In this document: positions 2 to 14,980 of the stretch, in pieces
Numbering within the stretch: position 1 is the stretch's first letter
How the letters are laid out: each line of letters begins with the position of its first letter
Translations under genes and position numbers: made by a program
Notes under the pieces: model-generated
The model's input: the letters and a program-made list of their open reading frames with translations, nothing else
The model's database searches: none
Told to the model about the DNA's origin: nothing
Assembly (NCBI GenBank): GCA_964493715.1
Contig: CAZBPC010000079.1
Span: 1 to 15,660 of the forward strand
From: an uncultured archaeon
GTDB lineage: Archaea > Asgardarchaeota > Lokiarchaeia > Sigyniarchaeales > SOKP01
DNA: 15,660 nt
Reading direction: 5' to 3'

Positions 2-1261
2 GCTATTGACATCACGGAGCGCAAGCAAGCAGAACGGGAATTAAAAAAATCTGAAGAAAAATATAGAAACATTCTTGAAACTATTAAAGAAGGGTATTTC
101 GAGGTCGATTTAGACGGAAACTTTACTTTTTTTAATGATGCGTTTTGTGAAATTTTTGGGTATTCTCGGCAAGAACTATTAAAGATGAATTATGGTGAAT
201 TAAGCGATGAAGATATAAAGCAATATCTATTTGAAGAATATAATAAAATGTTCAAAACTAAAAAGGAATTTGAGTTTTTTGAATATCCAATGAAAATGAA
301 GGATGGAGGATACGTGCATATCGAATCTTCTGCTTACTTAAGGTATGATGATAAAGATCGTATTATAGGATTTAAAGGAATTTCTAGAGATGTATCAGAG
401 AGAAAGAAAGGAGAAGCATTAAGACGGAATTTTAGCAAGAAGCTTGAAGAAGAAGTCGATTTAAGGACAAATCAACTTACTGAGGCACTTGAAAAACAGA
501 AACTGTATCTTGATCAAATTATTGAAAGTTCCCATTTTAAGACGGAATTTTTAGCTACCATGTCCCATGAATTACGAACACCTTTAAATAGCATCATAGG
601 ATTTACTGACTTACTTCTAGAAGGTACACACGGAAGTCTAAATAACGCTCAATTAGAATTTCTTAAGGATATTAAAAGTTCAGCAGAGCATCAATTTGAT
701 ATGATCTCTCAGATACTGGATATTTCTAAAATCGAGTCAGGTCAAAGCTCCTTGAAAATCGAAGATATTTTACTATATAATTTCATAAATAATATAATAT
801 CAACCTTAAGACCTTTAATTAACGAAAAAAAGTTAACATTAGAAATGAGGGGTATAAAAAAGAAACTAGTAGTTAGAGCAGATCCCATCAAATTTAAAAG
901 TATATTAGAAAACATTTTGGGTAATGCAATTAAATTTACTGAAAAAGGATATATTATCATTGAATTTTTATATTACAAAGAGGGGTGGGAATTGCTGATA
1001 AAAGATTCTGGTATTGGTATAGCAGAAGAGAATTTTGGGCTAATTTTTAAAGATTTTCAAAGGATTGAATCAACCTTTATAGATTCGACACCAGGTTCTG
1101 GTTTAGGTTTAACTCTAACTAAGAGAATTGTAGAGCTTCATGGTGGGAGGATTTCATTTAACAGTAAATTAGGAGAAGGTACAACATTCAGGATTAGGAT
1201 ACCTAAGGATCCTATAAATAAAGAAGTGTTTGAAGTAGAAAACTTTTTAAAATCATTATAA
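2..1261 (+). CDS. Soluble multi-PAS sensor histidine kinase (PAS-PAC/HisKA/HATPase_c), 5'-truncated by the window edge
   Basis: The frame is open from base 2 (AIDITERKQAERELKKSEEKYRNILETIKEGYFEVDLDGNFTFFNDAFCEIFGYSRQELLK-MNYG), i.e. the end of one PAC (DITERK) and the start of another PAS, so ATG 185 is internal. H-box FLATMSHELRTPLNSIIGF, N-box NILGNAIKFT, G1 DSGIGI, F-box IFKDF, G2 GSGLGL. Stop TAA at 1259-1261. No transmembrane segment in the visible part. Confidence 0.95.
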   Translation, partial: AIDITERKQAERELKKSEEKYRNILETIKEGYFEVDLDGNFTFFNDAFCEIFGYSRQELLKMNYGELSDEDIKQYLFEEYNKMFKTKKEFEFFEYPMKMKDGGYVHIESSAYLRYDDKDRIIGFKGISRDVSERKKGEALRRNFSKKLEEEVDLRTNQLTEALEKQKLYLDQIIESSHFKTEFLATMSHELRTPLNSIIGFTDLLLEGTHGSLNNAQLEFLKDIKSSAEHQFDMISQILDISKIESGQSSLKIEDILLYNFINNIISTLRPLINEKKLTLEMRGIKKKLVVRADPIKFKSILENILGNAIKFTEKGYIIIEFLYYKEGWELLIKDSGIGIAEENFGLIFKDFQRIESTFIDSTPGSGLGLTLTKRIVELHGGRISFNSKLGEGTTFRIRIPKDPINKEVFEVENFLKSL

Positions 1262-1278: not shown

Positions 1279-3408
1279 ATGTTGGAGAATAAAGAAGAGA
1301 TTTTATTAGATAATAAGGAAAACGTAAAGGAAACAACTGAATTATATGAGTTTTGGCTGAATCTTGAAACTGTAATATCTACCATATCATCAAGATTTCT
1401 TGGAAACTTTAATATTCATGAGGTTATTAATGCAACGTTACGGGATATCGGTATTTTAAGTGCCGTGAGCCGTAGTTATATTTTTTCAATTAGTAATGAT
1501 GCCAAATATATCAGTAATACTTATGAGTGGAATGAAGAAAATGTAAGTCCAAGAGTCCATAAACTCCAAAATGTGGAATTAAGCAGATTCCCATGGTTAA
1601 TCGATCAACTTTTGAATGGAAAAATTATCCATATATCAAATATTAAAAATCTTCCCAAGAATGCTATTGCAACAAGGGAATTTTTTGAATTACAAAATAT
1701 CAAATCAGTGTTAATATTTCCTATTTATGTAAAATCTAATTTATTTGGTTTTTTAGGTTTTGACTCTGTAAACGTTGCGAGAGAATGGAGAGAGACAGAT
1801 TTCTCACTACTTCGTATCACATCACAAATTATTGGGAACGCGTTTGAACGAGAAAAATTTGAAGAATTAATAAAGGAATCAGAAGCAAGCTACAGATTAA
1901 TTTTAGAAAATATCAATGATCTAGTTGTTATTATAAACTCAAATTATAAATTCGAGTATCTAAATGAGGAAACTTTAGTCAAGCTATTAGGTTACCGGAA
2001 TGAAGAAGTTTTAGGTTATTCTTGTTTAGATTTCATACATAATGATGAAATTGAACAGTTTACTCAAGCATTTAAAAATAACTACAATGTAAAAGATAAT
2101 GTTTCAGAATTAAGATTTCAGCATAAAAATGGAGAATGGTTATGGTTTGAATGCAGAGGGCAGTCTTTTGTTGATAGAGATAATAACCAAAAATGGTTAC
2201 TTGTTTTAAGAGATATAACTGAGAGAAAGTTGATTGAGGAAAGATATAAGACTCTATTCGAAAATTCTCCTAATGCCATAATATTAATTAATTTTAAGGG
2301 AGAAATACTGGAATGTAATTCAACTACAAGTAAAATATTTGGATATGGTATTGAATTTTTAAAAGGAAAAACTATTGATGATCTTAATAATCTATTCCCA
2401 ATAGAGATAAAGGCTTACTTCAAAAAAATATTTCAGGCATCATTTAACAACAAATTTCCAAAACCAATTGACATTCAAATTAATAATCAACAAAATAACC
2501 AAATTTGGGTCAAGATTCAAGCCTCTTTAGTTAAACAATACGGTAGTAGTATAATACAGTTAATTTTTCAAGATATTACGGAAAAAAAAAAAATTGAGCT
2601 TTTCGAAGCCAAATTTAAGGAAGAAATTGAAGAAGAGGTTGAATTAAGAACTAAAGAATTAAACAATGCACTTGAACAACAAAAACTATACTTAGATCAG
2701 ATTGTCAAATCCTCTCAATTTAAAACAGAATTTATGGCAACGATGTCACATGAATTACGTACTCCGTTAAATGCTATCATAGGGTTTGCTGATTTACTTT
2801 TAGAAGATGTGGATGGTGATTTAAGCGATGAGCAAAAGGAATTTGTCGTAGATATAAAAAGTTCAGCTGAACACCAATTTGAGATGATCAAACACATACT
2901 TAATATTACCAAAATAGAATCCGGGCAATTAACATTAAATATTCAGAAATTTTCACTAAATTCATTATTAGATCAAATTAAATCAAGTTTAAGACCACTA
3001 TATAACCCAAAGAATTTGAATTTGAAAATAAAGGGGATTGGGGAAGAACTTGAGATTTGGGCAGATCCAATTCGATTAAAAGAAATTATATTAAATCTTC
3101 TGAGCAATGCGATAAAGTTTACCATTGACGGAACCGTTAGATTAAAGATTACGCAAAATTATTATAATTGGATTTTTAAAATAGTAGATACGGGGATCGG
3201 GATAGCTAAAAAAGATTTTCCCCTTGTATTTAAAGAATTTGCCAGAGTTGACTCCCCGTTTGTCCGATCTGTACCAGGTACAGGTTTAGGTTTGTCTTTA
3301 ACGAAAAGACTGATTGAATTGCATGGTGGAGAAATCAATTTTACTAGCTTATTAGGTGTCGGAAGTATCTTCACATTTAATATCCCTAAAAAATTAGAAA
3401 GAATTTAG
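1279..3408 (+). CDS. Soluble GAF-PAS-PAS sensor histidine kinase
   Basis: N-terminal GAF (SRSYIF..NTYEW..FPW..IKSVLIFPI..GFLGFDSV..REW). Two PAS/PAC units ending in RDITERK and QDITEKK. H-box FMATMSHELRTPLNAIIGF, N-box NLLSNAIKFT, DTGIGI, VFKEF, GTGLGL. No hydrophobic helix. Starts 17 bp after the preceding kinase. Confidence 0.95.
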   Translation: MLENKEEILLDNKENVKETTELYEFWLNLETVISTISSRFLGNFNIHEVINATLRDIGILSAVSRSYIFSISNDAKYISNTYEWNEENVSPRVHKLQNVELSRFPWLIDQLLNGKIIHISNIKNLPKNAIATREFFELQNIKSVLIFPIYVKSNLFGFLGFDSVNVAREWRETDFSLLRITSQIIGNAFEREKFEELIKESEASYRLILENINDLVVIINSNYKFEYLNEETLVKLLGYRNEEVLGYSCLDFIHNDEIEQFTQAFKNNYNVKDNVSELRFQHKNGEWLWFECRGQSFVDRDNNQKWLLVLRDITERKLIEERYKTLFENSPNAIILINFKGEILECNSTTSKIFGYGIEFLKGKTIDDLNNLFPIEIKAYFKKIFQASFNNKFPKPIDIQINNQQNNQIWVKIQASLVKQYGSSIIQLIFQDITEKKKIELFEAKFKEEIEEEVELRTKELNNALEQQKLYLDQIVKSSQFKTEFMATMSHELRTPLNAIIGFADLLLEDVDGDLSDEQKEFVVDIKSSAEHQFEMIKHILNITKIESGQLTLNIQKFSLNSLLDQIKSSLRPLYNPKNLNLKIKGIGEELEIWADPIRLKEIILNLLSNAIKFTIDGTVRLKITQNYYNWIFKIVDTGIGIAKKDFPLVFKEFARVDSPFVRSVPGTGLGLSLTKRLIELHGGEINFTSLLGVGSIFTFNIPKKLERI

Positions 3409-3426
3409 TGCCCTTACTCATGGGAA

Positions 3427-4941
3427 TTACAAGAATTTTGCGCTTAAATTTTGTGTAATTTGAGCAATTTTTTTTAACTCCTCAAAATCATTCTCTAATA
3501 TAGCCTTCATCAAATTGATTTTCAATTTCTTGATTCGCTCTAGTGTTACAGAATAATTATTGTTAATTCTATTGAATAAATCATCAAGATCATTATATAA
3601 TTGTTGAGCATTTTCTAAATCATAAATTTCTAATTTGATAATCATATCATTATAGGTTTCATTCAAATCTTTAAGCCAAATCTGCCCTAGTTTCATTAAA
3701 GGAAAAAGTCCATCGATTTGACCAGTTGTTAGGCTATGTTCAAATTCCTCTTTATTTTCTTCAAATAAATTTTTAAAAAAATTATCAATTTTATTAATAA
3801 CGGGGTCTATATTTACATTAGGGTTCATAAAAAATGTTATGGTAAAATTTTCATAAGTTAAGATATGCATTCCTAAATTACTTCCCTTTAAACCAAATCC
3901 TGATAAATCTTGAATATTCAATTCTACTGAAAATTTCTCTAATGCACTAATAAACATTGGAATCAAATCTAAATCTACTGGAATAAAGTTAGGATCTTTT
4001 GAGACTTCAGAAACAAGAAATTTTTCAAGGGCATTATCGAATAATTCAATTTTTAATAAAGTACGACCATCTTTGTCAGCTATAAATGCGCCTATGAAAG
4101 GGGGGATTATTTCGTCAAGATTTAATTGTATTATGTTTATACTAGCGTTAGAAAATGATTTTAAAATATCTTTAAAATAATCTTGACCCTTTTCTGTTAG
4201 ACTAATTAATTCTTGATTTTTAGAATTTTCTATCTTAAGATGACCCTTTAAAACAAGACTCTTGATCAAATAATTGACTAACTTTGGAGGGCGATTTAAT
4301 TTTTCAAATAATTTCTCTCTTGTTATGATAATTTGTTCATCAATAGATTGTATCAATTTCACGGATTCATCTATAACATTAAACATTAAAGCTTCTTCAG
4401 ATGTTTCATCAATAAAACAAGATTTCATAATTTCAATGAAGTAAGACAAAGTCCGTGTTAGATATTTCTTTTTCAAACTGGTAAATAAGAATTTTATTAA
4501 TTTCTCAGAAGGAAATTTATATTTTATTCCATCATTGAGATCATTTATTCGCTTCTGAGTAATTAAATCGATTTTATGAAGTAAAACATAAATTTTTGCT
4601 TCGGGGGTTAATTTGTTACGTATTTCGATTATTCGAATGACAAAATTTATAATATCTTCTAAACTAGCTGAAACGTCGATAACTACAATGATCACCTTTG
4701 TTTCATAAAAAATCGAATTCGCTTCAGGTGTTAGCCATCTTTCGTTTTCTTGCCCTGCTAAATCAAAGATTCCAATCTCTTCTTTTAGTCCAGGTAATCT
4801 CATAATGAGAGACTCTTCACCATAGGTCGGTTCTAAAGCATATTCTAACAATTTAGTTGAATTCTCACCTTCAAAAAAAAGCTTCCTTAAAGTAGTTTTA
4901 CCTGCACCTGAAGGTCCTACAAAAATTATTTTTTTACTCAA
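3427..4941 (-). CDS. Rag/Gtr-like small GTPase fused to a winged helix, a longin/roadblock-like domain and a helical tail
   Basis: G1 GPSGAGKTT, switch I LEPTYG, G3 DLAGQE, G4 LHKID (His as in Rag GTPases), G5 FTSL. Residues ~190-262 look like a wHTH (LVNYLIKSLVLKGHL..ISLTEKG). Residues ~282-430 look longin/roadblock-like (GAFIADKDGRTLL..DLIPMFISALEKFSVEL). The TTG start overlaps the upstream gene's TGA (TTGA at 4938-4941). GTPase call is strong; accessory domains are less certain. Confidence 0.85.
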   Translation of the reverse strand: MSKKIIFVGPSGAGKTTLRKLFFEGENSTKLLEYALEPTYGEESLIMRLPGLKEEIGIFDLAGQENERWLTPEANSIFYETKVIIVVIDVSASLEDIINFVIRIIEIRNKLTPEAKIYVLLHKIDLITQKRINDLNDGIKYKFPSEKLIKFLFTSLKKKYLTRTLSYFIEIMKSCFIDETSEEALMFNVIDESVKLIQSIDEQIIITREKLFEKLNRPPKLVNYLIKSLVLKGHLKIENSKNQELISLTEKGQDYFKDILKSFSNASINIIQLNLDEIIPPFIGAFIADKDGRTLLKIELFDNALEKFLVSEVSKDPNFIPVDLDLIPMFISALEKFSVELNIQDLSGFGLKGSNLGMHILTYENFTITFFMNPNVNIDPVINKIDNFFKNLFEENKEEFEHSLTTGQIDGLFPLMKLGQIWLKDLNETYNDMIIKLEIYDLENAQQLYNDLDDLFNRINNNYSVTLERIKKLKINLMKAILENDFEELKKIAQITQNLSAKFL

Positions 4942-6257
4942 TTTGAACTCTTTTCCTTTATGTTAAAATAGAATAAATTCTTTATTTTTAATCTAATTTG
5001 CCCTATCATCCAAATTAATTTGTTTGCACTAAGAGTTTCAGATATACAAATTAAATTCTTAATTTCAAATTGACTTAAATTAAGATTGTTCAAAATAATG
5101 TTTAAATCATTTTGTCCTGAAATTATAAGATGTTCAATTTTACTATTACTCGACATATCTTCAAATGATTGAGTAATTTGAGCTATTAATTTATGAGCAT
5201 GGTTAACATTACTGAAATTAAAATCTTTGGAAGTAGATTGCGATATTATACTATTATTTTGATTTGTAATGAAAAACATTGATTTAGCAGATTCATTAGT
5301 AAAATCATCCAATATCTTTTTTAGTTGAAAGGTCTCGTTTGAATAGCTAGCTAAAATTTCATAAAAAGCATTATAAGTACTAAAAATAAATTCAGGATGA
5401 ATGCTCGTATAGAAAATTGAAAACGAAAATTTATCTTTTAAGGCATTGGTGATCTCACTAAGTATATTTTTACGATTTTCATTGTTGATCAAATCAATTT
5501 TATGAATGAAAATTATAATTCTCGCTGAATATGAATCGCCATCAATTATTTTTTGAATTTTTTGAATTTCAGAAACAATTTCGCTAGGATTTCTAATCCA
5601 TGTTGTATAATCAAAGATATATATTATTACATCAGTGTTATAAAATGCTAGATCATATTCGTCTTTGTTATTTAATAGGGCTTCTAATTCCTGACCGGAA
5701 GAGTCAAATAATCCGATTTTTAAATCTAACCATGAATAAACAGATGGACTTAATCCCCGAGTGGGATCTAATGGATTAACCAATAATTTTTTAGGATCAA
5801 AACCTTCAAAAATTATTTTTTTAACGGTTGTTTTTCCTGTACCTGCTCTACCAAGTAACAGAATTTTTTGAGCTGAAGTGGATTTAAAGAAACTTTCAAT
5901 ATTATTTTGAAAATACTTATTCCGCTCTGATTTTTCAATGTTGAAAATATCTTGTCCAAAATTAATCAAATTTTTTTTAAAACTGTATGAATTAATTGCT
6001 TCTTTTTCCTCTAAAAAAAGACTCACAATTTCATATCCAACTTTAGGCACTCTTGTTTTATCGCAATAAGATAAGATAGTTAGGTTACTGTAACTAGTTT
6101 CAATTAATTCTTGTTTACTAAAATCTTCGCTGTAAGCAAATGTCATATAAATTTTATTAATCAGATCCTCTTGGATTTCAAAACCGTGAGGATATTTGAT
6201 ATCCAAAACTGAACCCATTTTATTATCCCAACTAAAGAGTACGATACCAACGACCAA
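4938..6257 (-). CDS. Rag/Gtr-like small GTPase with an N-terminal uDENN/longin-like domain and a C-terminal roadblock-like domain
   Basis: KILLLGRAGTGKTTVKKIIF (G1), LDPTRG (switch I), DSSGQE (G3), IIYIFD, FIHKIDL (G4), YTSI (G5), closely following the RagA/Gtr1 pattern. N-terminal ~125 aa begin GIVLFSWDNKMGSVLDIKYP. C-terminal ~120 aa (LKKILDDF..MFFITNQNNSIISQS) have a helix-strand-strand-helix roadblock pattern. TTG start, with an in-frame stop 7 codons upstream. Confidence 0.85.
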   Translation of the reverse strand: MVVGIVLFSWDNKMGSVLDIKYPHGFEIQEDLINKIYMTFAYSEDFSKQELIETSYSNLTILSYCDKTRVPKVGYEIVSLFLEEKEAINSYSFKKNLINFGQDIFNIEKSERNKYFQNNIESFFKSTSAQKILLLGRAGTGKTTVKKIIFEGFDPKKLLVNPLDPTRGLSPSVYSWLDLKIGLFDSSGQELEALLNNKDEYDLAFYNTDVIIYIFDYTTWIRNPSEIVSEIQKIQKIIDGDSYSARIIIFIHKIDLINNENRKNILSEITNALKDKFSFSIFYTSIHPEFIFSTYNAFYEILASYSNETFQLKKILDDFTNESAKSMFFITNQNNSIISQSTSKDFNFSNVNHAHKLIAQITQSFEDMSSNSKIEHLIISGQNDLNIILNNLNLSQFEIKNLICISETLSANKLIWMIGQIRLKIKNLFYFNIKEKSSN

Positions 6258-6426
6258 GATCAGAACACTAATTACTTAAGATTTTGTACTTTTCGCGAAG
6301 AATTAAATTTAAATAATAAATAAAAAATGTTATATATAAACATATCTAAATACTAATAGAGATTTAACACGATTATAATAATAGAGAACAGATAAAGAGA
6401 ATTTATAACAATTTATAGTGAATAAA
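6258..6426. promoter_or_regulatory. Divergent promoter region between the GTPase operon (-) and the response regulator (+)
   Basis: Very AT-rich ~170-bp spacer between head-to-head genes. TATA-like boxes: TTTAAA 6308-6313, TTATATATAAA 6330-6340, and TTTATAA 6402-6408 preceded by a purine-rich BRE-like run. Exact boxes cannot be assigned. Confidence 0.5.
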
Positions 6427-6801
6427 ATGAAAAAAGTTTTCGTTGTCGAGGATAATGAGAAGAATATGAAATTATTCCGCGCGATTTTGAAAATCATACC
6501 GGATATTGAAGTTTTTGAAGAAACTCGAGGAGATTTAGGATTTGAGCTAATAAAATCCGGGGATCCTGATATAGTAATTTTGGACATTCAATTACCAGAA
6601 ATGAATGGAATCGAAATATGCAGTGAATTAAGAAAGTTAGATAAATTTAAGGATACTCCAATAATTGCAGTAACTTCCTTCGCCATGAAGGGAGATAAAG
6701 AACGCATTATGGATGCTGGTTTTACCCAATACGTTTCAAAACCTATTAAAGTTCAAGAATTTAGAGAAGTTGTAAAAAATTATCTAAATCTTGAAAATTA
6801 A
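6427..6801 (+). CDS. Single-domain response regulator (CheY-like receiver, DivK-like subtype)
   Basis: VVEDN acidic pocket, phospho-Asp in ILDIQLPEMNG, AVTSFAMKGDKERI and YVSKPI; no output domain. ATG 6427 is preferred over the in-frame GTG 6418 because the receiver fold begins MKKVFVVED. Confidence 0.95.
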   Translation: MKKVFVVEDNEKNMKLFRAILKIIPDIEVFEETRGDLGFELIKSGDPDIVILDIQLPEMNGIEICSELRKLDKFKDTPIIAVTSFAMKGDKERIMDAGFTQYVSKPIKVQEFREVVKNYLNLEN

Positions 6802-6822
6802 TATTCTTTTTATCTATTAAAT

Positions 6823-6835
6823 AAAAAGTTTATAA
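6823..6835 (+). promoter_or_regulatory. Candidate archaeal BRE-TATA promoter for the 6904 gene
   Basis: A purine run (AAAAAG) directly followed by TTTATAA, about 70 bp upstream of TTG 6904 and just after a T-run (6807-6811) following the response regulator stop. The AT-rich background limits specificity. Confidence 0.4.
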
Positions 6836-6903
6836 TAATATAGCTATTAATACACTTAATTCTAAGAGTTCTCTATTTGATTTAAAAAAAATATCTGATC
6901 AAT

Positions 6904-8109
6904 TTGAAAGGTATTATAATTATTGGTTATAATGAAGAATCTAAAGCTTTTATTGATAAACAATTTCCAAGTAATATTGCTGAATTTCTAAAAATTTCAC
7001 CACAAATTCTCAAGGAACTATCAGATCACCACTTTAGAAAGAAAATGGAACCAAATTATCTAGAAGTAGTGTTAGAGGGTGATATAAATGTTGCGAGCTT
7101 TTACTCCGGATTTTCTTTTAGGCATTACGTGGGAACCCCAAATTTTACCGTTGTTGTTTTTCTTTCAGAAGATGATTTTCTTTCTATAGATTTTGAAGGA
7201 ATGATGCGCTGTATATCTCACGAATTACTTCCAAAACGAGAAGCTCTTAATTTCGATGACATTCTGGGAAAATATTATACGATGTTAAAAAATGAAGAAT
7301 TAACTCCTTATTGGGAGGAAATTATTGAAGGTGAAACGAGTTTGATTGAAAGAGAATTAAAAAAGAATGAGGATGCACCTAGGACGAAACAGGAAGATGG
7401 TCAAATAGAAACTTTTGTTAAAGACAAATTAGAAAAAGATATAGTCAATTCTGATTTAGCCTTAAAAAATTCTGAGCTTGAAAATTTATTAACAGAGAAG
7501 AAAGGAAAAATCAGGGAATTATCTATAAAATTCACGGATTTAGCTTCTCAAAACGCTCTAAAAGAAGAAGAAATCGATACTTTAAAAAATGAAATTAGCG
7601 AACAATACATTACATTAGAAAAATGGGGTCAACAATTAGCTGAATTAAACGAAAATAATTCAACATTGTTGATTGAAGTAAACAAACTTACAGAAAAGCT
7701 CAATGAAAAAGAAATGAAGTTAACTGAAAATGAATCAATTCTCTCTCAATTAAAAAATGAATCACTCGAAATAAAAAATATTGAAAAAGAAGCAGAAAAT
7801 ATTTTACAAGAAATGGAGGATCTAAAGAATATCAATCTCGGATTACACTCCGAAATTAAATCGTTAGAAACGCAAAATGCAATGCTCAAAGAAGAGATTG
7901 AAAAGTCAAAAATGTCAAGAAATTTAAATATCGATTCAATGACTACCCTTAAATTTAAAATCAAGAATTTTAAAGAACAGCTTTCCACTAAAGCTTTACG
8001 TGAAGAAGAAATTAATGAACAAATCTTTGATTTAAAAAAAGAAATAAAAGTCTTAAGACGCGAAAGGGACCATTATTTACAAATCGTGAAAGATAATAAT
8101 CTCATTTGA
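6904..8109 (+). CDS. uDENN/longin-like N-terminal domain plus long coiled-coil protein
   Basis: Residues 1-~135 have an alpha/beta pattern (MKGIIIIGYNEESKAFIDKQFP..INVASFYSG..FTVVVFL) resembling the N-termini of the 6257(-) and 15027(+) proteins. Residues ~170-401 are E/K/L/N-rich heptads with no Pro and no Walker motifs. TTG start. Confidence 0.7.
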   Translation: MKGIIIIGYNEESKAFIDKQFPSNIAEFLKISPQILKELSDHHFRKKMEPNYLEVVLEGDINVASFYSGFSFRHYVGTPNFTVVVFLSEDDFLSIDFEGMMRCISHELLPKREALNFDDILGKYYTMLKNEELTPYWEEIIEGETSLIERELKKNEDAPRTKQEDGQIETFVKDKLEKDIVNSDLALKNSELENLLTEKKGKIRELSIKFTDLASQNALKEEEIDTLKNEISEQYITLEKWGQQLAELNENNSTLLIEVNKLTEKLNEKEMKLTENESILSQLKNESLEIKNIEKEAENILQEMEDLKNINLGLHSEIKSLETQNAMLKEEIEKSKMSRNLNIDSMTTLKFKIKNFKEQLSTKALREEEINEQIFDLKKEIKVLRRERDHYLQIVKDNNLI

Positions 8110-8282
8110 TTTTAATTTCTATATATCTTGTTATGAATAAGCTAATTGATAAATTTCCCTTTTATCTCGTGCTAATATTGATGATCCTTAACAAAAAACA
8201 TATACTTTTAAACATATATTTTTTTATTTATGATAATAGTTTTAAACATGAAATACTAATATAATATATAAAATTCAAATTT

Positions 8283-8287
8283 AGGTG
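8283..8287 (+). promoter_or_regulatory. Shine-Dalgarno (AGGTG) of the roadblock gene
   Basis: AGGTG lies 7 nt before ATG 8295 and matches the archaeal GGAGGTGA consensus. Confidence 0.6.
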
Positions 8288-8294
8288 TATTAGA

Positions 8295-8750
8295 ATGTCA
8301 CTTGATACCAAATCATTCGATAACATTTTATCAAAAATTATCAAATCTGAAAGTGGAATTAAAAAAGTAATATTAGTTGATAGAACAGGATTGACAATCG
8401 CGAGTGTTTCAAAATTTTCGTATTTTCCAGCTGATGTTGATGGGATCGGTGCTATCGCGAGTGCGGTGTTCTGTGCGAGCGAAGAACAAGGAAAGAACCT
8501 GGAACTTGGCGATCTGGAGATAGTTACGTCAGAATTTGGCGGCGGCAAAATTTTTGCATCTAGTTGTGGTCCAAAGGGGGTATTGACACTGATTTCTGAT
8601 CCTGAAATTAATATTGGTTTGATTCGACTCATATTAAAACGTTCAGGAGACGAATTAAAGGAGATTTTAGATGAGTTCTTGGCAGATATTCCAGATACGT
8701 TAGATAGTGGCTTGGATCTCTCTGATTTAGATTCCCTTACACCCGATTAA
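8295..8750 (+). CDS. Roadblock/LC7 (MglB/LAMTOR2-like) domain protein with an acidic C-terminal tail
   Basis: Classic roadblock pattern: GIKKVILVDRTGLTIAS, IGAIASAVF..SEEQGKNLELGDLEIVTSEF..GKIF, VLTLISDPEINIGLIRLIL. Tail DIPDTLDSGLDLSDLDSLTPD. Good RBS. Confidence 0.93.
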   Translation: MSLDTKSFDNILSKIIKSESGIKKVILVDRTGLTIASVSKFSYFPADVDGIGAIASAVFCASEEQGKNLELGDLEIVTSEFGGGKIFASSCGPKGVLTLISDPEINIGLIRLILKRSGDELKEILDEFLADIPDTLDSGLDLSDLDSLTPD

Positions 8751-10485: not shown

Positions 10486-12759
10486 TTGCTATTGAACGAG
10501 AAAAAGGAAAGATTTAACATTCTATTATTATCATTTACACTCATTTCCTTGGTAATTTTTCAATTCACTTTTACTACTTCTAATTATCAGATAATTAATG
10601 AACAAAAAAACGAAGAAATTTCTGATATAAATACTTCACTTCAAAATACCATTACAAAACAATGGATTAACAATTCTGCTTTCGAATCTCCAATAGAACC
10701 AACATGGTTTTGGGAAAATGGCGCTGAGGGAGATAATTCTGATTTGGATGCAATTACCACCCCAGGACAAGCCAATTTTCGCGTGCTTGGAGAAAAATTA
10801 ACTTTTACGCTAGTTTCGGGAGTTGTGAATTCAACCACATCACTAGGATGGAAACAATTTCGAAATGGGGATTTCCAATATCCTACTACGGCAGAAATAA
10901 CTTCAGTGGGTTGTGAAGTATATCACTATTGGCATGATGATACTAATCAAGCTCCAAGCGTCCATTGGAAAAAAAATGTGAGCGTTCCTGTAGATATGTC
11001 TGATTACGTTATTTCTTCAGCATCATTAGAGATTATATATAATGCTAGTGTTAATGCAGATATAGACACCCCAAACGACCCGGTTACTAACTTTGCAATT
11101 GGAGATTCTGTAACTTTTTATTCCCAAATTTCTGATTTAGGCTATAACCCACCAATCTATACAGTAGCAGAAAATAAAACAAAATATTTGGGTCAAGATT
11201 CACCTTCATTCTTGAGTTTTTCAGATCGAACCTTGGAAACTGCTAGTGAATTGGATTTGATAACTGCCCTTAATTCTGCATTTGAAAAAGATCCAGATCA
11301 TTCCAATTTTACTCTTACATTAGGAATGGATATCTATAGCGAGGATAATGAACCCGGAACTGATAATGATCATTTTGATTCTCTAATTATTAAATCTTGC
11401 AATTTAACTCTAACTGTAGAGAAAAAAATAGATCAATCGACTTCGTTATCATGGAATCAGATAGGAAATCAAATAAGTGGAAGTAATATTCAAATTACTG
11501 GGGCGAATTTTAATTTTAAATATAAAGTTGATAAAAATTGGCCCTCTCAAGCACCACTTTCGGAGATAAGATTTTATATAAACGATAAAGTTTACACTGA
11601 AGGTATAACAAAAATAAGTTCAGCAACAACCTCATTTCAAGAAGCTAAATTAGGTGGGTTTAATGTATTGGGATTTATTGAAAAAGATATAAACATTACA
11701 GTATCTATTGAGGTTTTTTTAAAAGATAATTTCGATTTGAATGAAACTATTGACATCTCGATTGATGATGTATATTTAAATATTACATATATTGAAACAC
11801 TTCCCGATTATGAAAGTGATTATGTATTATTTTTTAACTCAGTTGATAAGACTCTTGATCCCCTGCTCGAGGTTCCAATTGGGGAAGTAATAAATTTAAC
11901 TCTCAAATTCACGGATATCATGGGGACTCATTTAAGTGGGGCAGAAATTTTAATCACAGGAATTAGATTAAGAGAAAATTTAACTGAAAATGTAGCTTTA
12001 GAACAATATACAATTATGCTCAATACAACAGAAAGACTAGATTTAGGTGCGAATTTATTAACACTTACAGCTTTATATCCTGATTATCAAACAAAATTAG
12101 TATACCCAAGAATAACAGTTAGAAAAATAAATGCTGAAATTATCCCTACTTCAGGTTTAAATGTCGTTAACATTAAACCTGGAGAAAATGTGCCTTTGCA
12201 AATATGGTTGAATGATACTGATTATGGAAATAATATAACTGGGGCTGTTGTTACCTATTCATATTCAAATGGAGATGGAGTTCTCTCCGATCCTGATAAT
12301 GATGGAATATATGAAGGAATTATTCAAAATTTACTTCCTGGTTCCCATGTGGTCACTATAAATGCCCTTGTTGGAGATGATTATCAAGTTCAAAGTTTTC
12401 AATTAACTATAAATGCGCTTTCACCCCCAAATCCTCTTTTAGATTTGTTGATATATATTTTATTGGGAGCTATCGTGGTTGTGTCTGGAGGTATAGTATT
12501 ATACCAAACTCACTTTAAATATCCCCCAACTATCAGAAAGATCAGGAAATTAAAGAAGAAAATAAGAAAAGAGAAGAAATTGAAAAAAATCGAAATCAGT
12601 AATAGAGGAAATATTATTAGTAATAGAATAACGGAAAAAACTGCCCTAATTTATGTAGAACCTTCATTACCAATAATTAAAAAAGGACAATCAGATCAAA
12701 AGGGGATCAATACCAAAGATGCTCAGAATTTAAAAAATAAGGGGGGAGATTTTAAGTAA
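10486..12759 (+). CDS. Large secreted, C-terminally membrane-anchored cell-surface glycoprotein (paralog 1)
   Basis: Basic N-terminus plus hydrophobic helix (ILLLSFTLISLVIFQFTF). Acidic, beta-strand-rich ectodomain with more than 15 N-x-S/T sequons by eye and a DPDNDGIY motif. TM LLIYILLGAIVVVSGGIVLY, then QTHFKYPPTIRKIRKLKKKIRK. TTG start. Confidence 0.85.
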   Translation: MLLNEKKERFNILLLSFTLISLVIFQFTFTTSNYQIINEQKNEEISDINTSLQNTITKQWINNSAFESPIEPTWFWENGAEGDNSDLDAITTPGQANFRVLGEKLTFTLVSGVVNSTTSLGWKQFRNGDFQYPTTAEITSVGCEVYHYWHDDTNQAPSVHWKKNVSVPVDMSDYVISSASLEIIYNASVNADIDTPNDPVTNFAIGDSVTFYSQISDLGYNPPIYTVAENKTKYLGQDSPSFLSFSDRTLETASELDLITALNSAFEKDPDHSNFTLTLGMDIYSEDNEPGTDNDHFDSLIIKSCNLTLTVEKKIDQSTSLSWNQIGNQISGSNIQITGANFNFKYKVDKNWPSQAPLSEIRFYINDKVYTEGITKISSATTSFQEAKLGGFNVLGFIEKDINITVSIEVFLKDNFDLNETIDISIDDVYLNITYIETLPDYESDYVLFFNSVDKTLDPLLEVPIGEVINLTLKFTDIMGTHLSGAEILITGIRLRENLTENVALEQYTIMLNTTERLDLGANLLTLTALYPDYQTKLVYPRITVRKINAEIIPTSGLNVVNIKPGENVPLQIWLNDTDYGNNITGAVVTYSYSNGDGVLSDPDNDGIYEGIIQNLLPGSHVVTINALVGDDYQVQSFQLTINALSPPNPLLDLLIYILLGAIVVVSGGIVLYQTHFKYPPTIRKIRKLKKKIRKEKKLKKIEISNRGNIISNRITEKTALIYVEPSLPIIKKGQSDQKGINTKDAQNLKNKGGDFK

Positions 12760-12769
12760 CTCCATTAAG

Positions 12770-14980
12770 GTGAATATCGTGAATCGAAAACAAATAATTA
12801 GCACGTTATTACTGGGAATTTTAATAATTCAAATTTCTATGTTGGAGACTTATCCCCTAAATAGAAATGCTGTCTCTTATAATGAATCTATTGATGTTTT
12901 AAAACCATCTGGGTCGGATATTATTGAAACGCAATGGTTAAAGAACACGGATTTTTCTACTTTAGATGATTGGTTTATCTTAAAGGGAGAACAAGGTGAT
13001 AATTCGAGTATTGATGCAAATATAGATAACGGTCAAGCAAATTATGTCGTTATTGGAGATATTTATAATTTTCAAGTAACTTCCGGAAGTGCCAATTCCT
13101 CAACTTGGGATGGATGGGGAATTTATAATAACAGTGATTTTCTTTTACCCGATGTGGTTGAAATAAATAGCACTGGGTGTTATGTCTACCATTTCTTAGA
13201 TGAGGGTGAAAGCGGAGGAGCTGGTCAAGTACACAATTTCCCAAGTGTTCATTTCAGAAAAAATGTAAGTTTGCCTCATGATATGTCAGATTATAAAATT
13301 ACAACAGCTTCTCTAGAAGTGATTTTTAATGCAACTGTGGATTCTAATGTCGATGCTCCAGGTGACATAGTAGATCAATCAGCAATTTGGGATTCTGCTA
13401 CATTTTATGTCGAAATCGCGGATTTAAATATTAGTTATGCTTTCAGAGTCGCTGAAAATAAAACTTCTACTCTAGGTCAGGATTCTCCCCCAATTTTAAC
13501 TATTTCAGATCAGGAATTGACATATGTTAGTGAGAATGACTTAATTACAGCACTCAACTTAGCACTTGAAAAAGATCCAAACCATTCAGATTTTACTATT
13601 ACCATAGGTATTGATATTTATTGTGAAGATAACTTGTATACAGGAGTTGGTGATCTAGATAAATGGGATGCTCTCATAATTAATTCATTTAATTTAACAA
13701 TGAATTATGAGAGGAAAATTGAACAATTTACATCTTTATCGTGGAATCAAATCGGAAATCAATTAACGGGGGTAGATATAGAATTAATCAACGCAACTTT
13801 TAATTTTAATTATAAAATCGATGAATTGTGGCCTACAGCCTCCTCTCCGTTTTCTGAAATTGCTGTAATCATCAATAATAACAAACATTCTGAAACGATT
13901 AGATTAGATACAGCAAATACTACATTTCAAGAAGCAAAACAAGGAGGATTTGACGTCACTTCCTTAATTTCAAAAGATGTAAATATTTCCATCTCAATTC
14001 AAGTGTTAATAGCAAATACTTTTGGATTAGGAAAAAATATTACCTTATCAATTGATGATGTTGAATTAAACATTACTTACAGTCATGCATTTCCTGATAT
14101 CGAACCAGATCTACAAATATTCATCAATGGTGAAAATAAGACTACAGATCCTTTTATTGAAGTCCCTATTGGTGCGATTGTGAATGTTACAATTAGATAT
14201 TCTGATGATGTAGGGTCATTTATAGAAGGGGGGTTAGTCCGGTTAACAGGCATTGGGATATTAGAGGATTTAGAAGAAAACTCAATTCATCAACACTACA
14301 GCTATTTGATTAATTCAACAGAAAAACTCAGCCAAGGAACGAATCTTCTTACAATCACTACTCAAAAAATTAATTTTCAACCAAAAAATTTAGAATTTTC
14401 GATAGTTGTAAGGAAAATTGAAACGAAGGTTCAAAGTACTACCGGGAATGATATAATAAATATAAATCCTGGAGGTAATGTTAATTTACAAGTATATTTG
14501 AATGATACAGATATTAATCAACCAATCATTGGTGCTCTTGTATTATATGACTGGGATTTTGGTCAAGGGATTCTGAGAGATGATAATAATGATGGAACTT
14601 ACGTAGTAAATTTGTTGAACGTACCTGCAGGTTCTTACATTGTAACTATTTCCGTTTTTGGAAGTGAAGATTATGTATTCCATGAATATCAAATAACAAT
14701 AAATGCTATTAGTGGAATTACTACAGATTGGATTCCACTTATCATTATTCTCTCAGTTGGAATTTTAGGAATTATTGGCTTTTTTACATTATATCAAACT
14801 TACTTAAAATATCCTCCTTTAGTAAGAAAAATAAGGAAATTAAGAAAGAAAATAAGCAAGGGTAAAAAAATAAAACCGACAAATTCTATGAACAGAGAAT
14901 TACTTGTTGCAAAAAATCTACAAGATAAAATAAATCTCGCAGAATTTGAATCTATTCCAATAGAAAAGAGAAAAGAGTAA
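12770..14980 (+). CDS. Large secreted, C-terminally membrane-anchored cell-surface glycoprotein (paralog 2)
   Basis: Colinear with paralog 1 (GDNS..A..GQAN, PSVH.[KR]KNVS.P.DMSDY, VAENKT..LGQDSP, LITALN.A.EKDP.HS.FT, TSLSWNQIGNQ, FQEAK.GGF, DP..EVPIG). Signal-like N-terminus, DDNNDGTY motif, C-terminal TM plus KYPPLVRKIRKLRKKISK. The true start may be GTG 12779, since AGGTGA at 12768-12773 looks like its RBS. Confidence 0.85.
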   Translation: MNIVNRKQIISTLLLGILIIQISMLETYPLNRNAVSYNESIDVLKPSGSDIIETQWLKNTDFSTLDDWFILKGEQGDNSSIDANIDNGQANYVVIGDIYNFQVTSGSANSSTWDGWGIYNNSDFLLPDVVEINSTGCYVYHFLDEGESGGAGQVHNFPSVHFRKNVSLPHDMSDYKITTASLEVIFNATVDSNVDAPGDIVDQSAIWDSATFYVEIADLNISYAFRVAENKTSTLGQDSPPILTISDQELTYVSENDLITALNLALEKDPNHSDFTITIGIDIYCEDNLYTGVGDLDKWDALIINSFNLTMNYERKIEQFTSLSWNQIGNQLTGVDIELINATFNFNYKIDELWPTASSPFSEIAVIINNNKHSETIRLDTANTTFQEAKQGGFDVTSLISKDVNISISIQVLIANTFGLGKNITLSIDDVELNITYSHAFPDIEPDLQIFINGENKTTDPFIEVPIGAIVNVTIRYSDDVGSFIEGGLVRLTGIGILEDLEENSIHQHYSYLINSTEKLSQGTNLLTITTQKINFQPKNLEFSIVVRKIETKVQSTTGNDIININPGGNVNLQVYLNDTDINQPIIGALVLYDWDFGQGILRDDNNDGTYVVNLLNVPAGSYIVTISVFGSEDYVFHEYQITINAISGITTDWIPLIIILSVGILGIIGFFTLYQTYLKYPPLVRKIRKLRKKISKGKKIKPTNSMNRELLVAKNLQDKINLAEFESIPIEKRKE

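Follow-up and report, generated by a model that had tools for sequence, protein, structure and literature searches.

A 15,660-nt stretch of contig CAZBPC010000079.1 (the window; GC content about 29%), from an uncultured archaeon of the Lokiarchaeia, carries two genes, here called A and B, whose products are, judged by their sequences, paralogous GTPases of the Rag/Gtr family. We propose that A and B are probably co-transcribed and translationally coupled, that they belong to a module together with a DivK-like receiver and one or two soluble PAS/GAF histidine kinases, and that the pair is a lineage-specific parallel to the Rag heterodimer of eukaryotes and not its direct ancestor. Asgard Rag-like GTPases fused to longin or roadblock domains, and an operonic pair of them, are already in the literature; the newer angle is the link to a phosphorelay, together with the winged helix found in B. 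The two genes and their parts are the following:

4938-6257, minus strand: gene A, a Rag-like GTPase of 439 amino acids with a TTG start and the order longin - G domain - roadblock (from the list of open reading frames, PF04670 and an AlphaFold2 model)
5883..6257, minus strand: longin-fold domain of A, residues 1-125 (about), with a conserved F-x-W-D-x-K-x-G motif
5346..5876, minus strand: G domain of A, residues 128-304 (about), with the P-loop GRAGTGKT at 136-143, DSSGQ at 185-189, HKID at 252-255 and TSI at 284-286
4950..5345, minus strand: roadblock domain of A, residues 305-436 (about)
4938-4941, minus strand: TTGA overlap of A and B, with the stop codon TGA of A at 4938-4940 and the start codon TTG of B at 4939-4941; the minus strand reads caaaTTGAgt
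3427-4941, minus strand: gene B, a Rag-like GTPase of 504 amino acids with a TTG start and the order G domain - winged helix - longin-order domain - helical tail
4414..4941, minus strand: G domain of B, residues 1-176 (about), with the P-loop GPSGAGKT at 9-16, T39, DLAGQ at 60-64, HKID at 122-125 and TSL at 154-156
4144..4401, minus strand: MarR/PadR-like winged helix-turn-helix of B, residues about 181-266, inserted after the G domain
3748..4113, minus strand: b-b-a-b-b-b-a domain of B (longin order), residues 277-398 (about), in the place of the C-terminal roadblock of Rags
3430..3747, minus strand: helical tail of B, residues about 397-504, with long helices at 414-435, 442-483 and 486-503

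Membership in the Rag/Gtr family is indicated by several kinds of comparison. PF04670 (Gtr1_RagA) is the best Pfam match of both proteins (A, 2e-22 over residues 131-347; B, 5.2e-18 over residues 4-141), scoring 80.2 and 65.8 bits, respectively, where the cut-off is 22 and the runners-up are Arf with 29.6 bits for A and Ras with 35.4 bits for B. All 22 A homologues and all 25 B homologues match the same family. Among solved structures, the nearest relatives by sequence are Gtr1 and RagA (3e-13 and 5e-12 for A, 7e-11 and 4e-10 for B). RagC, RagD and Gtr2 rank after these for both proteins (1e-6 to 2e-3, with RagC at 1e-6 to 7e-5 for A and Gtr2 at 1e-3 for B), and the first GTPases outside the Rag family appear at 3e-3 for A and 4e-4 for B. 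RagA/Gtr1 is favoured over RagC/Gtr2 by 5 to 8 orders of magnitude for A and B alike. Foldseek likewise places chains of Gtr1, RagA and RagC at the top for both models, at 2.8e-15 over about 320 columns for A and 6.9e-10 over about 400 columns for B.

The residues of G1, G3, G4 and G5 are invariant or nearly so in the alignments of 22 A and 25 B homologues, the H, K and D of HKID being invariant in each; an HKxD form of G4 in place of NKxD is typical of Rags. The switch-I region follows the pattern FEG-x4-KLL-x3-L[DE]PTxG in both proteins, as FEGFDPKKLLVNPLDPTRG in A and FEGENSTKLLEYALEPTYG in B. Because the nucleotide-binding and catalytic motifs are all kept, both proteins should bind and hydrolyse GTP and look like active GTPases. 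Neither C-terminus (...KEKSSN in A, ...SAKFL in B) has a terminal cysteine for a lipid anchor, and Rags have been described as being without lipid modification (PMC4917890). The TTG start of A lies in the alignment column at which 20 of the 22 A homologues begin, and that of B in the column at which 19 of the 25 B homologues do so.

When profiles were compared with profiles, the G domains of A and B matched each other with a probability of 99.9, while the domains outside the G domains (the longin and roadblock of A; the longin-order domain, winged helix and tail of B) all gave probabilities below 5, and the fold assignments therefore rest on the AlphaFold2 models (mean predicted local distance difference test score, pLDDT, 80.9 for A and 74.3 for B). 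The earlier note on this DNA had described A and B as paralogous Rag-type GTPases with HKID, TS[IL], an intact DxxGQ and a shared switch-I pattern, each followed by a roadblock/longin-like domain. This description stands in full: PF04670 outscores Arf, Ras and Roc for both proteins with Gtr1/RagA as the nearest solved relatives, the G domains are related to each other, all the quoted motifs are present in both, and the modelled domains downstream have the roadblock order in A (307-432) and the longin order in B (282-395). The N-terminal longin of A and the winged helix and helical tail of B are parts beyond that description.

In the model of A, residues 1-122 follow the longin order b-b-a-b-b-b-a-a, and structural alignment of residues 1-127 (VIA-align) finds a Lokiarchaeal longin (8yqg_B, Z 11.8, 125 residues aligned), C9orf72-SMCR8 (7o2w_A, Z 11.3), the SEA complex (8adl_S, Z 10.6) and the longin of VAMP7 (Z 10.4). 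Residues 307-432 have the roadblock order a-b-b-a-b-b-b-a and are matched by MglB (3t1r_A, Z 12.2), MglC (Z 12.0), MP1/p14 (Z 11.5) and Roadblock3 of strain MK-D1 (9jue_D, Z 11.2). Residues 130-435 as a unit align with Gtr2 (Z 17.9), RagC (Z 17.6), LokiRagO (8yl2_A, Z 17.1) and Gtr1 (Z 14.7); the sequence alignment with Gtr1 also continues to residues 370-405, that is, into the C-terminal domain.

In the model of B, the G domain is closest to RagD (2q3f_B, Z 16.1, root-mean-square deviation (rmsd) 2.9 over 157 aligned residues), and residues 181-266, as modelled, are a winged helix of the fold found in DNA-binding regulators, with the PadR-like factor 5h20_A (Z 12.5, 92 aligned) and MarR bound to operator DNA (5h3r_A, Z 11.9, rmsd 1.2 over 74 residues) as matches. 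Pfam matches to this segment are weak among the 25 members of the B family: DUF6293_C in 4, HTH_45 in 3 (best 3.8e-4), TFIIE_alpha in 2 and HTH_34 in 1. Residues 282-395 follow the order b-b-a-b-b-b-a, with an invariant G292 just before the second strand. Over residues 2-400, B aligns with LokiRagO (8yl2_A, Z 14.3), Gtr2 (Z 12.2) and RagC (Z 11.7), all at an rmsd of 10-12. The helical tail is kept in the 25 homologues; neither Pfam searches over the family members nor a language-model atlas gave a family match for it, the atlas returning no usable match for residues 178-504.

The two genes are as tightly joined as had been noted, with the 4-nt TTGA overlap at 4938-4941 confirmed and an AAGGA stretch lying inside A about 12 nt upstream of the start of B. 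To place this junction among related genomes, species-representative genomes were scanned with the conserved peptides of A, which gave 37 loci, 34 of them with an A orthologue. In 28 of these 34, B comes next after A on the same strand, with a junction of -8 nt in 3 loci, -4 in 2, +1 to +17 in 21, +29 in 1 and +37 in 1; the genes overlap in 5 of the 28, and the junction is at most 17 nt in 26. The codon at the start position of B is ATG in 23 of the 28 loci, TTG in 3, GTG in 1 and ATA in 1. Since the order A then B recurs in so many loci, the pairing is more than chance. Tight adjacency was seen only in loci with a close A orthologue. In a sister family (f3), no A stands directly before the B-like genes (28-40% identity), and a full-length A-like gene (27-33% identity) lies 2.1-4.9 kb from the B-like gene in 4 of the 5 genomes examined.

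The neighbourhood of the pair is the strongest functional clue that we have. It contains the following:

6418-6801, plus strand: single-domain response regulator, DivK-like and receiver only (PF00072, 6e-26; best solved relative DivK, 2.2e-28)
6258-6417, either strand: AT-rich intergenic stretch of 160 nt between the divergent A and receiver genes, presumably holding the promoters of both
1279-3408, plus strand: GAF-PAS-PAS histidine kinase (HisKA, HATPase_c, PAS, GAF), convergent with B, the stop codons being 18 nt apart
2..1261, plus strand: second PAS histidine kinase (HisKA, HATPase_c, PAS), running off the 5' end of the window
6904-8109, plus strand: protein of 401 aa without a Pfam match, comprising a globular N-terminal part (about 150 residues) and a coiled coil (about 230)
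8295-8750, plus strand: MglB-like roadblock protein of 151 aa (Robl_LC7, 5e-10; MAPKK1_Int, 1e-6)

Of the 34 loci, 24 have a receiver orthologue (65-91% identity) no more than 400 nt from the pair, divergent upstream of A at 145-251 nt in 22 of these and downstream in 2; counted over the whole locus, the number is 27. For a kinase gene the corresponding numbers are 23 and 28, both receiver and kinase stand within 400 nt in 16 loci, and a second kinase follows the first in many; several of the loci that have no receiver or kinase are contig ends. In five loci (L006, L010, L012, L013 and L026), the kinase precedes A by 25-29 nt on the same strand, so that kinase, A and B are arranged as one operon. 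Outside the close orthologues, a receiver gene stands directly upstream of the B-like gene in 3 of 10 loci examined from families f3 and f4 (L039, L046 and L047). The receiver gene is not a chance neighbour, because the genome of the window (3.68 Mb in 160 contigs) has only 15 receiver-domain matches. In two of the f3 loci (L039 and L046), the B-like gene lies between the same-strand upstream receiver and a gene for a DRG-type GTPase (MMR_HSR1_Xtn and TGS), and a second, divergent receiver gene is nearby.

In what we consider the most likely mechanism, A and B would be made at close to 1:1 and would join through their longin/roadblock-type domains into a two-GTPase switch, like Gtr1-Gtr2 and RagA-RagC. 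A cytoplasmic signal would lead a kinase to phosphorylate the receiver, which, having no output domain, would act on the GTPase pair through binding, and the nucleotide state of the pair would then set the activity of the winged helix of B, in binding either DNA or a partner. A heterodimer of A and B is plausible by analogy, on account of their homology to Rag dimers and the coupling of the genes; the contact between receiver and GTPases and the output through the winged helix are steps that we infer. The most specific version of this scheme, in which the pair is the output stage of a phosphorelay, with PAS/GAF kinase and DivK-like receiver controlling a Rag-like switch that has a C9orf72-like longin in A and a MarR-type DNA-binding domain in B and works as a GTP-gated transcription factor, seems to us doubtful as a whole.

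Several observations weigh against a heterodimer coupled to a phosphorelay. Six of the 34 loci do not have A followed by B, and while in one (L029) the contig ends inside A, in another (L030) a different GTPase follows A and two B-like genes are convergent, and in four (L016, L017, L019 and L034) A stands without an adjacent B. The genome of L019 has a B-like gene at 37% identity elsewhere; those of L016, L017 and L034, assemblies of uncertain completeness, have no full-length B anywhere at E <= 1e-20, their best B matches being proteins of about 300 aa with a G domain and a winged helix. Together with the proximity of A-like and B-like genes in f3, these loci indicate that the two families are linked beyond the tight operon, yet that B is dispensable to A. 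Fused A-B proteins, sought among proteins of 770-2195 aa, were not found at E <= 1e-10, which is weak evidence. Because the domains of A and B outside the G domains have no profile similarity and that of B has the longin order, a symmetric roadblock-roadblock dimer of the Rag type is not given, and the titles of solved Lokiarchaeal Rag-like proteins, which name a homotetramer (8yl2) and a monomer (8zla, 9m28), indicate that heterodimers are not the rule in this group. Gene neighbourhood alone does not prove that kinase or receiver act on the GTPases, and the partner of the winged helix could be a protein rather than DNA. A complex prediction for full-length A and B with alignments scored 0.00 against a mark of 0.32; it was made without controls and has no weight either way.

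These observations can be accommodated in other ways. A and B may form no heterodimer at all, each being a homo-oligomer or monomer that acts in a successive step of one pathway, with the operon providing co-expression only. The homotetramer and monomer titles are what this arrangement would lead one to expect, as are the genomes, at least three in number, in which A occurs without B while receiver and kinase are retained next to it (L016, L017 and L034), and the f3 genes that lie 2-5 kb apart, often divergent. It accounts less well for tight coupling in 28 of 34 loci with five overlaps, for the presence of dimerisation-type longin/roadblock domains on both proteins, and for the AlphaFold2 heterodimer published for the operonic Rag-like pair of MK-D1 (PMC10933270), a pair that we match to A and B by description only; on balance we think it rather unlikely. 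Somewhat less unlikely, and still short of an even chance in our view, is that A and B are regulator and client, the longin of A, alone or with the longin-order domain of B, being a built-in platform of the GTPase-activating protein (GAP) or guanine nucleotide exchange factor (GEF) type for the G domain of B or of A, in the manner of the longin pairs C9orf72-SMCR8, FLCN-FNIP and NPRL2-NPRL3, which act on Arf and Rag GTPases. The longin fold of A (residues 1-127), with C9orf72-SMCR8 and the SEA-complex chain among its matches, and the longin order of B with its invariant G292 are in keeping with such a role, and so are conserved positions in the longin of the 22 A homologues: W10, which closes strand 1, and G15, which opens strand 2, are invariant, and D11, next to W10, and K13 are kept in at least 90%. 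In C9orf72, W33-D34 are reported to be required for GAP activity (PMC12290439, 2025), and the same paper describes a GP motif immediately ahead of strand 2 as a mark of GAP-type longins, those of Asgard archaea included. However, the residue after G15 is S in 14 of the 22 homologues, A in 6 and P in just 2, so that the GP motif is absent from most, and no arginine is invariant either in residues 1-125 of A (R112, kept in at least 90% of homologues, is placed in a helix) or in residues 277-398 of B. The language-model atlas gave for residues 1-125 of A a lead to a cluster with NPR2 in 19% of its members, but the lead is weak, since shuffled proteins attain its score of 0.80 in one case out of three.

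Whether A and B could be the archaeal counterparts of RagA/B and RagC/D, so that the Rag heterodimer would be older than eukaryotes, bears on the suggestion of the earlier note that the pair is an ancestral, or proto-Rag, heterodimer. To place the two genes, we built a maximum likelihood tree of G domains with 42 rows (10 A and 11 B orthologues, 7 A-like, B-like or other Rag-like proteins and 14 paralogues from this genome); its 37 Rag-like rows are all Lokiarchaeal, and five small GTPases among the 14 paralogues form the outer group. The A clade (support 100/99) and the B clade (99/95) come together with one 293-aa paralogue and one f3 B-like protein in a single clade (95/90), which stands apart from nine other Rag-like rows, eight of them paralogues from this genome. 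A scan of the whole genome with the Rag model PF04670 gives 39 matches, some 15 of which are strong, and in it several paralogues outscore both A (81.9 bits) and B (58.7 bits), with 96.6 bits as the highest score. The tree of Lokiarchaeal rows, the preference of both proteins for RagA/Gtr1, their restricted distribution and the additional domains together point to a probable duplication inside a Lokiarchaeal subfamily as the origin of A and B.

The counterpart view is not without its attractions: both proteins are of the Rag family, A is collinear with Gtr1 through the C-terminal domain, the best full-length matches of A by fold include Gtr2 (Z 17.9) and RagC (Z 17.6) while the G domain of B is nearest to RagD (Z 16.1), and a roadblock protein with a weak LAMTOR3-type match (MAPKK1_Int) is encoded 2 kb away. 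Nevertheless, with both members preferring RagA/Gtr1 by 5 to 8 orders of magnitude, a joint clade apart from nine other Rag-like rows of which several have higher PF04670 scores, B found in one order only, tight adjacency seen only with a close A orthologue, and additional longin, winged-helix and helical domains, we regard it as highly improbable, and the proto-Rag suggestion is not supported.

The distribution of the two families is narrow. Each has more than 200 homologues, and among the best 120 of each every label that names an organism is Promethearchaeota, Promethearchaeia or Lokiarchaeia/Lokiarchaeota, one further label being 'marine sediment metagenome'. With B as query, 62 of 398 Asgard genomes match at E <= 1e-30, a lower bound since three candidates were scored per genome, and all 62 belong to the order of the window (families f1-f4); in the same search, with its three candidates per genome, no full-length B was found in Asgard families other than f1-f4. 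A library of 1.84 billion proteins searched with the best PF04670 paralogue of the genome gave 1655 matches at E <= 0.001; 20 of the 150 matches listed were looked up, of which 9 have archaeal labels, 11 name no organism and none is eukaryotic. Two loci carry unexpected titles, a Rag-like paralogue (L036) being assigned to a Nanopelagicaceae bacterium bin and an A-B locus (L004) to an Odinarchaeota bin; because the identity levels are Lokiarchaeal, these look like errors of binning or labelling and not like gene transfer. DNA near-identical to window positions 3300-6900 occurs in salt marsh metagenome runs, with at least half of the sampled words present in 9 of the 24 listed rows; two of these runs may be the source sample.

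The 293-aa paralogue nearest to the B clade (L049, G000:C21:29500-42000) has a G domain and a short C-terminal part, and its contig carries, within about 10 kb, a Ras-like GTPase, two hybrid kinase-receiver genes, a receiver and a further kinase. This is a second neighbourhood of GTPase and two-component genes in the same genome as A and B. On the other side of the receiver gene in the window, the roadblock protein at 8295-8750 has as its best solved relatives Roadblock3 of MK-D1 (9jue, 1.5e-6) and MglB. It is unusually conserved, at 90-98% identity in 9 of the 34 loci, where it lies 2-3 kb from the pair and A itself is 49-86% identical, and it is a possible platform partner of the pair. The 401-aa protein is found between the receiver and roadblock genes in several loci (30-77% identity) and has no similarity to A in a BLASTP comparison. 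Two open reading frames on the minus strand, at 6330-6587 and 8228-8632, are not taken to be genes, since they are antisense to the receiver and roadblock genes, lack a Pfam match and show a conservation that mirrors that of those genes. Further along, at 10486-14980 on the plus strand, are two large adjacent open reading frames (757 and 736 aa) without a Pfam match, with weak similarity in one other locus (L008, 36-50% identity).

To our knowledge, no partners or function of the Rag-like GTPases of Asgard archaea have been tested so far. The cassette described here supplies concrete candidates, namely two GTPases, a receiver, one or two sensor kinases and a nearby roadblock protein, and the testable idea arising from it is that a phosphorelay may be linked through the GTPases to the winged helix. 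If the pair were indeed the output of a phosphorelay, bacterial-style His-Asp signalling would be joined in Asgard archaea to eukaryote-style signalling through Rag, longin and roadblock parts. For a coupled Rag-like pair of the Lokiarchaeia, a parallel innovation specific to the lineage is a better reading than ancestry of RagA/RagC, and this reading guards against making too much of such pairs in accounts of the origin of eukaryotes. A review of 2016 asked whether these GTPases offer a handle on nutrient sensing in archaea and noted that in Lokiarchaeum they are fused to roadblock or longin domains (PMC4917890). Our literature search found no paper on the receiver-A-B-kinase cassette and none on the LokiRag structures.

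Eukaryotic Rags are obligate heterodimers of two paralogues held together through their C-terminal domains. A and B resemble these heterodimers (RagA/B-RagC/D and Gtr1-Gtr2) in PF04670, in HKxD, in having no C-terminal cysteine for a lipid anchor, in the roadblock domain that follows the G domain in A, and in being two paralogues that are probably made together. They differ in the extra N-terminal longin of A and, in B, in the winged helix, the longin-order domain where Rags have a roadblock and the 100-residue helical tail; moreover, A and B are both RagA/Gtr1-like in sequence, and their neighbours are a histidine kinase and a receiver and not genes of the TOR pathway. A close published case is the one Rag-like GTPase gene pair in an operon of Promethearchaeum syntrophicum MK-D1, for which AlphaFold2 predicts a heterodimer that, like Gtr1/Gtr2, is joined by its roadblock domains (Tran et al. 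2024, PMC10933270). The same paper lists the architectures GTPase + longin, GTPase + roadblock and longin - GTPase - roadblock, and reports that GTPase genes are generally not in operons with regulators. The two Rag-like pairs are compared here by description only; the available text of that paper mentions no kinase or receiver neighbours for the MK-D1 pair, and no MK-D1 record is among the 37 loci found with the conserved peptides of A. LokiRagO (8yl2) and LokiRagM (8zla, 9m28) share the fold over the G domain and C-terminal domain, but their titles name a homotetramer and a monomer, and we take them to be other paralogues because they do not appear within E <= 0.01 in sequence searches with A or B.

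Outside the Rag family, the MglA-MglB-RomR polarity module of Myxococcus is alike in that a small GTPase, a roadblock-type partner and a receiver-domain protein are described as acting together, and the roadblock gene of the window is nearest to MglB and to Asgard roadblock proteins. In contrast to that module, A and B are of the Rag type and not of the MglA type, they carry their roadblock and longin domains within the GTPase chain, and no motility context is seen in the neighbourhood. Among Asgard archaea, Rag-family GTPases fused to longin domains have been noted, and growth control has been proposed to be centred on two-component systems with eukaryote-type regulators (Liu et al. 2020, 10.1101/2020.10.19.343400). 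The fusions described there, of an 'NPRL2-like longin' to two-component proteins and of longin to Rag, are a close parallel to the context of A and B, in that longin and Rag parts of eukaryotic type are wired to two-component signalling; in those proteins the wiring is by fusion, whereas A and B are linked to receiver and kinase by a conserved gene order of receiver, A, B and kinase.

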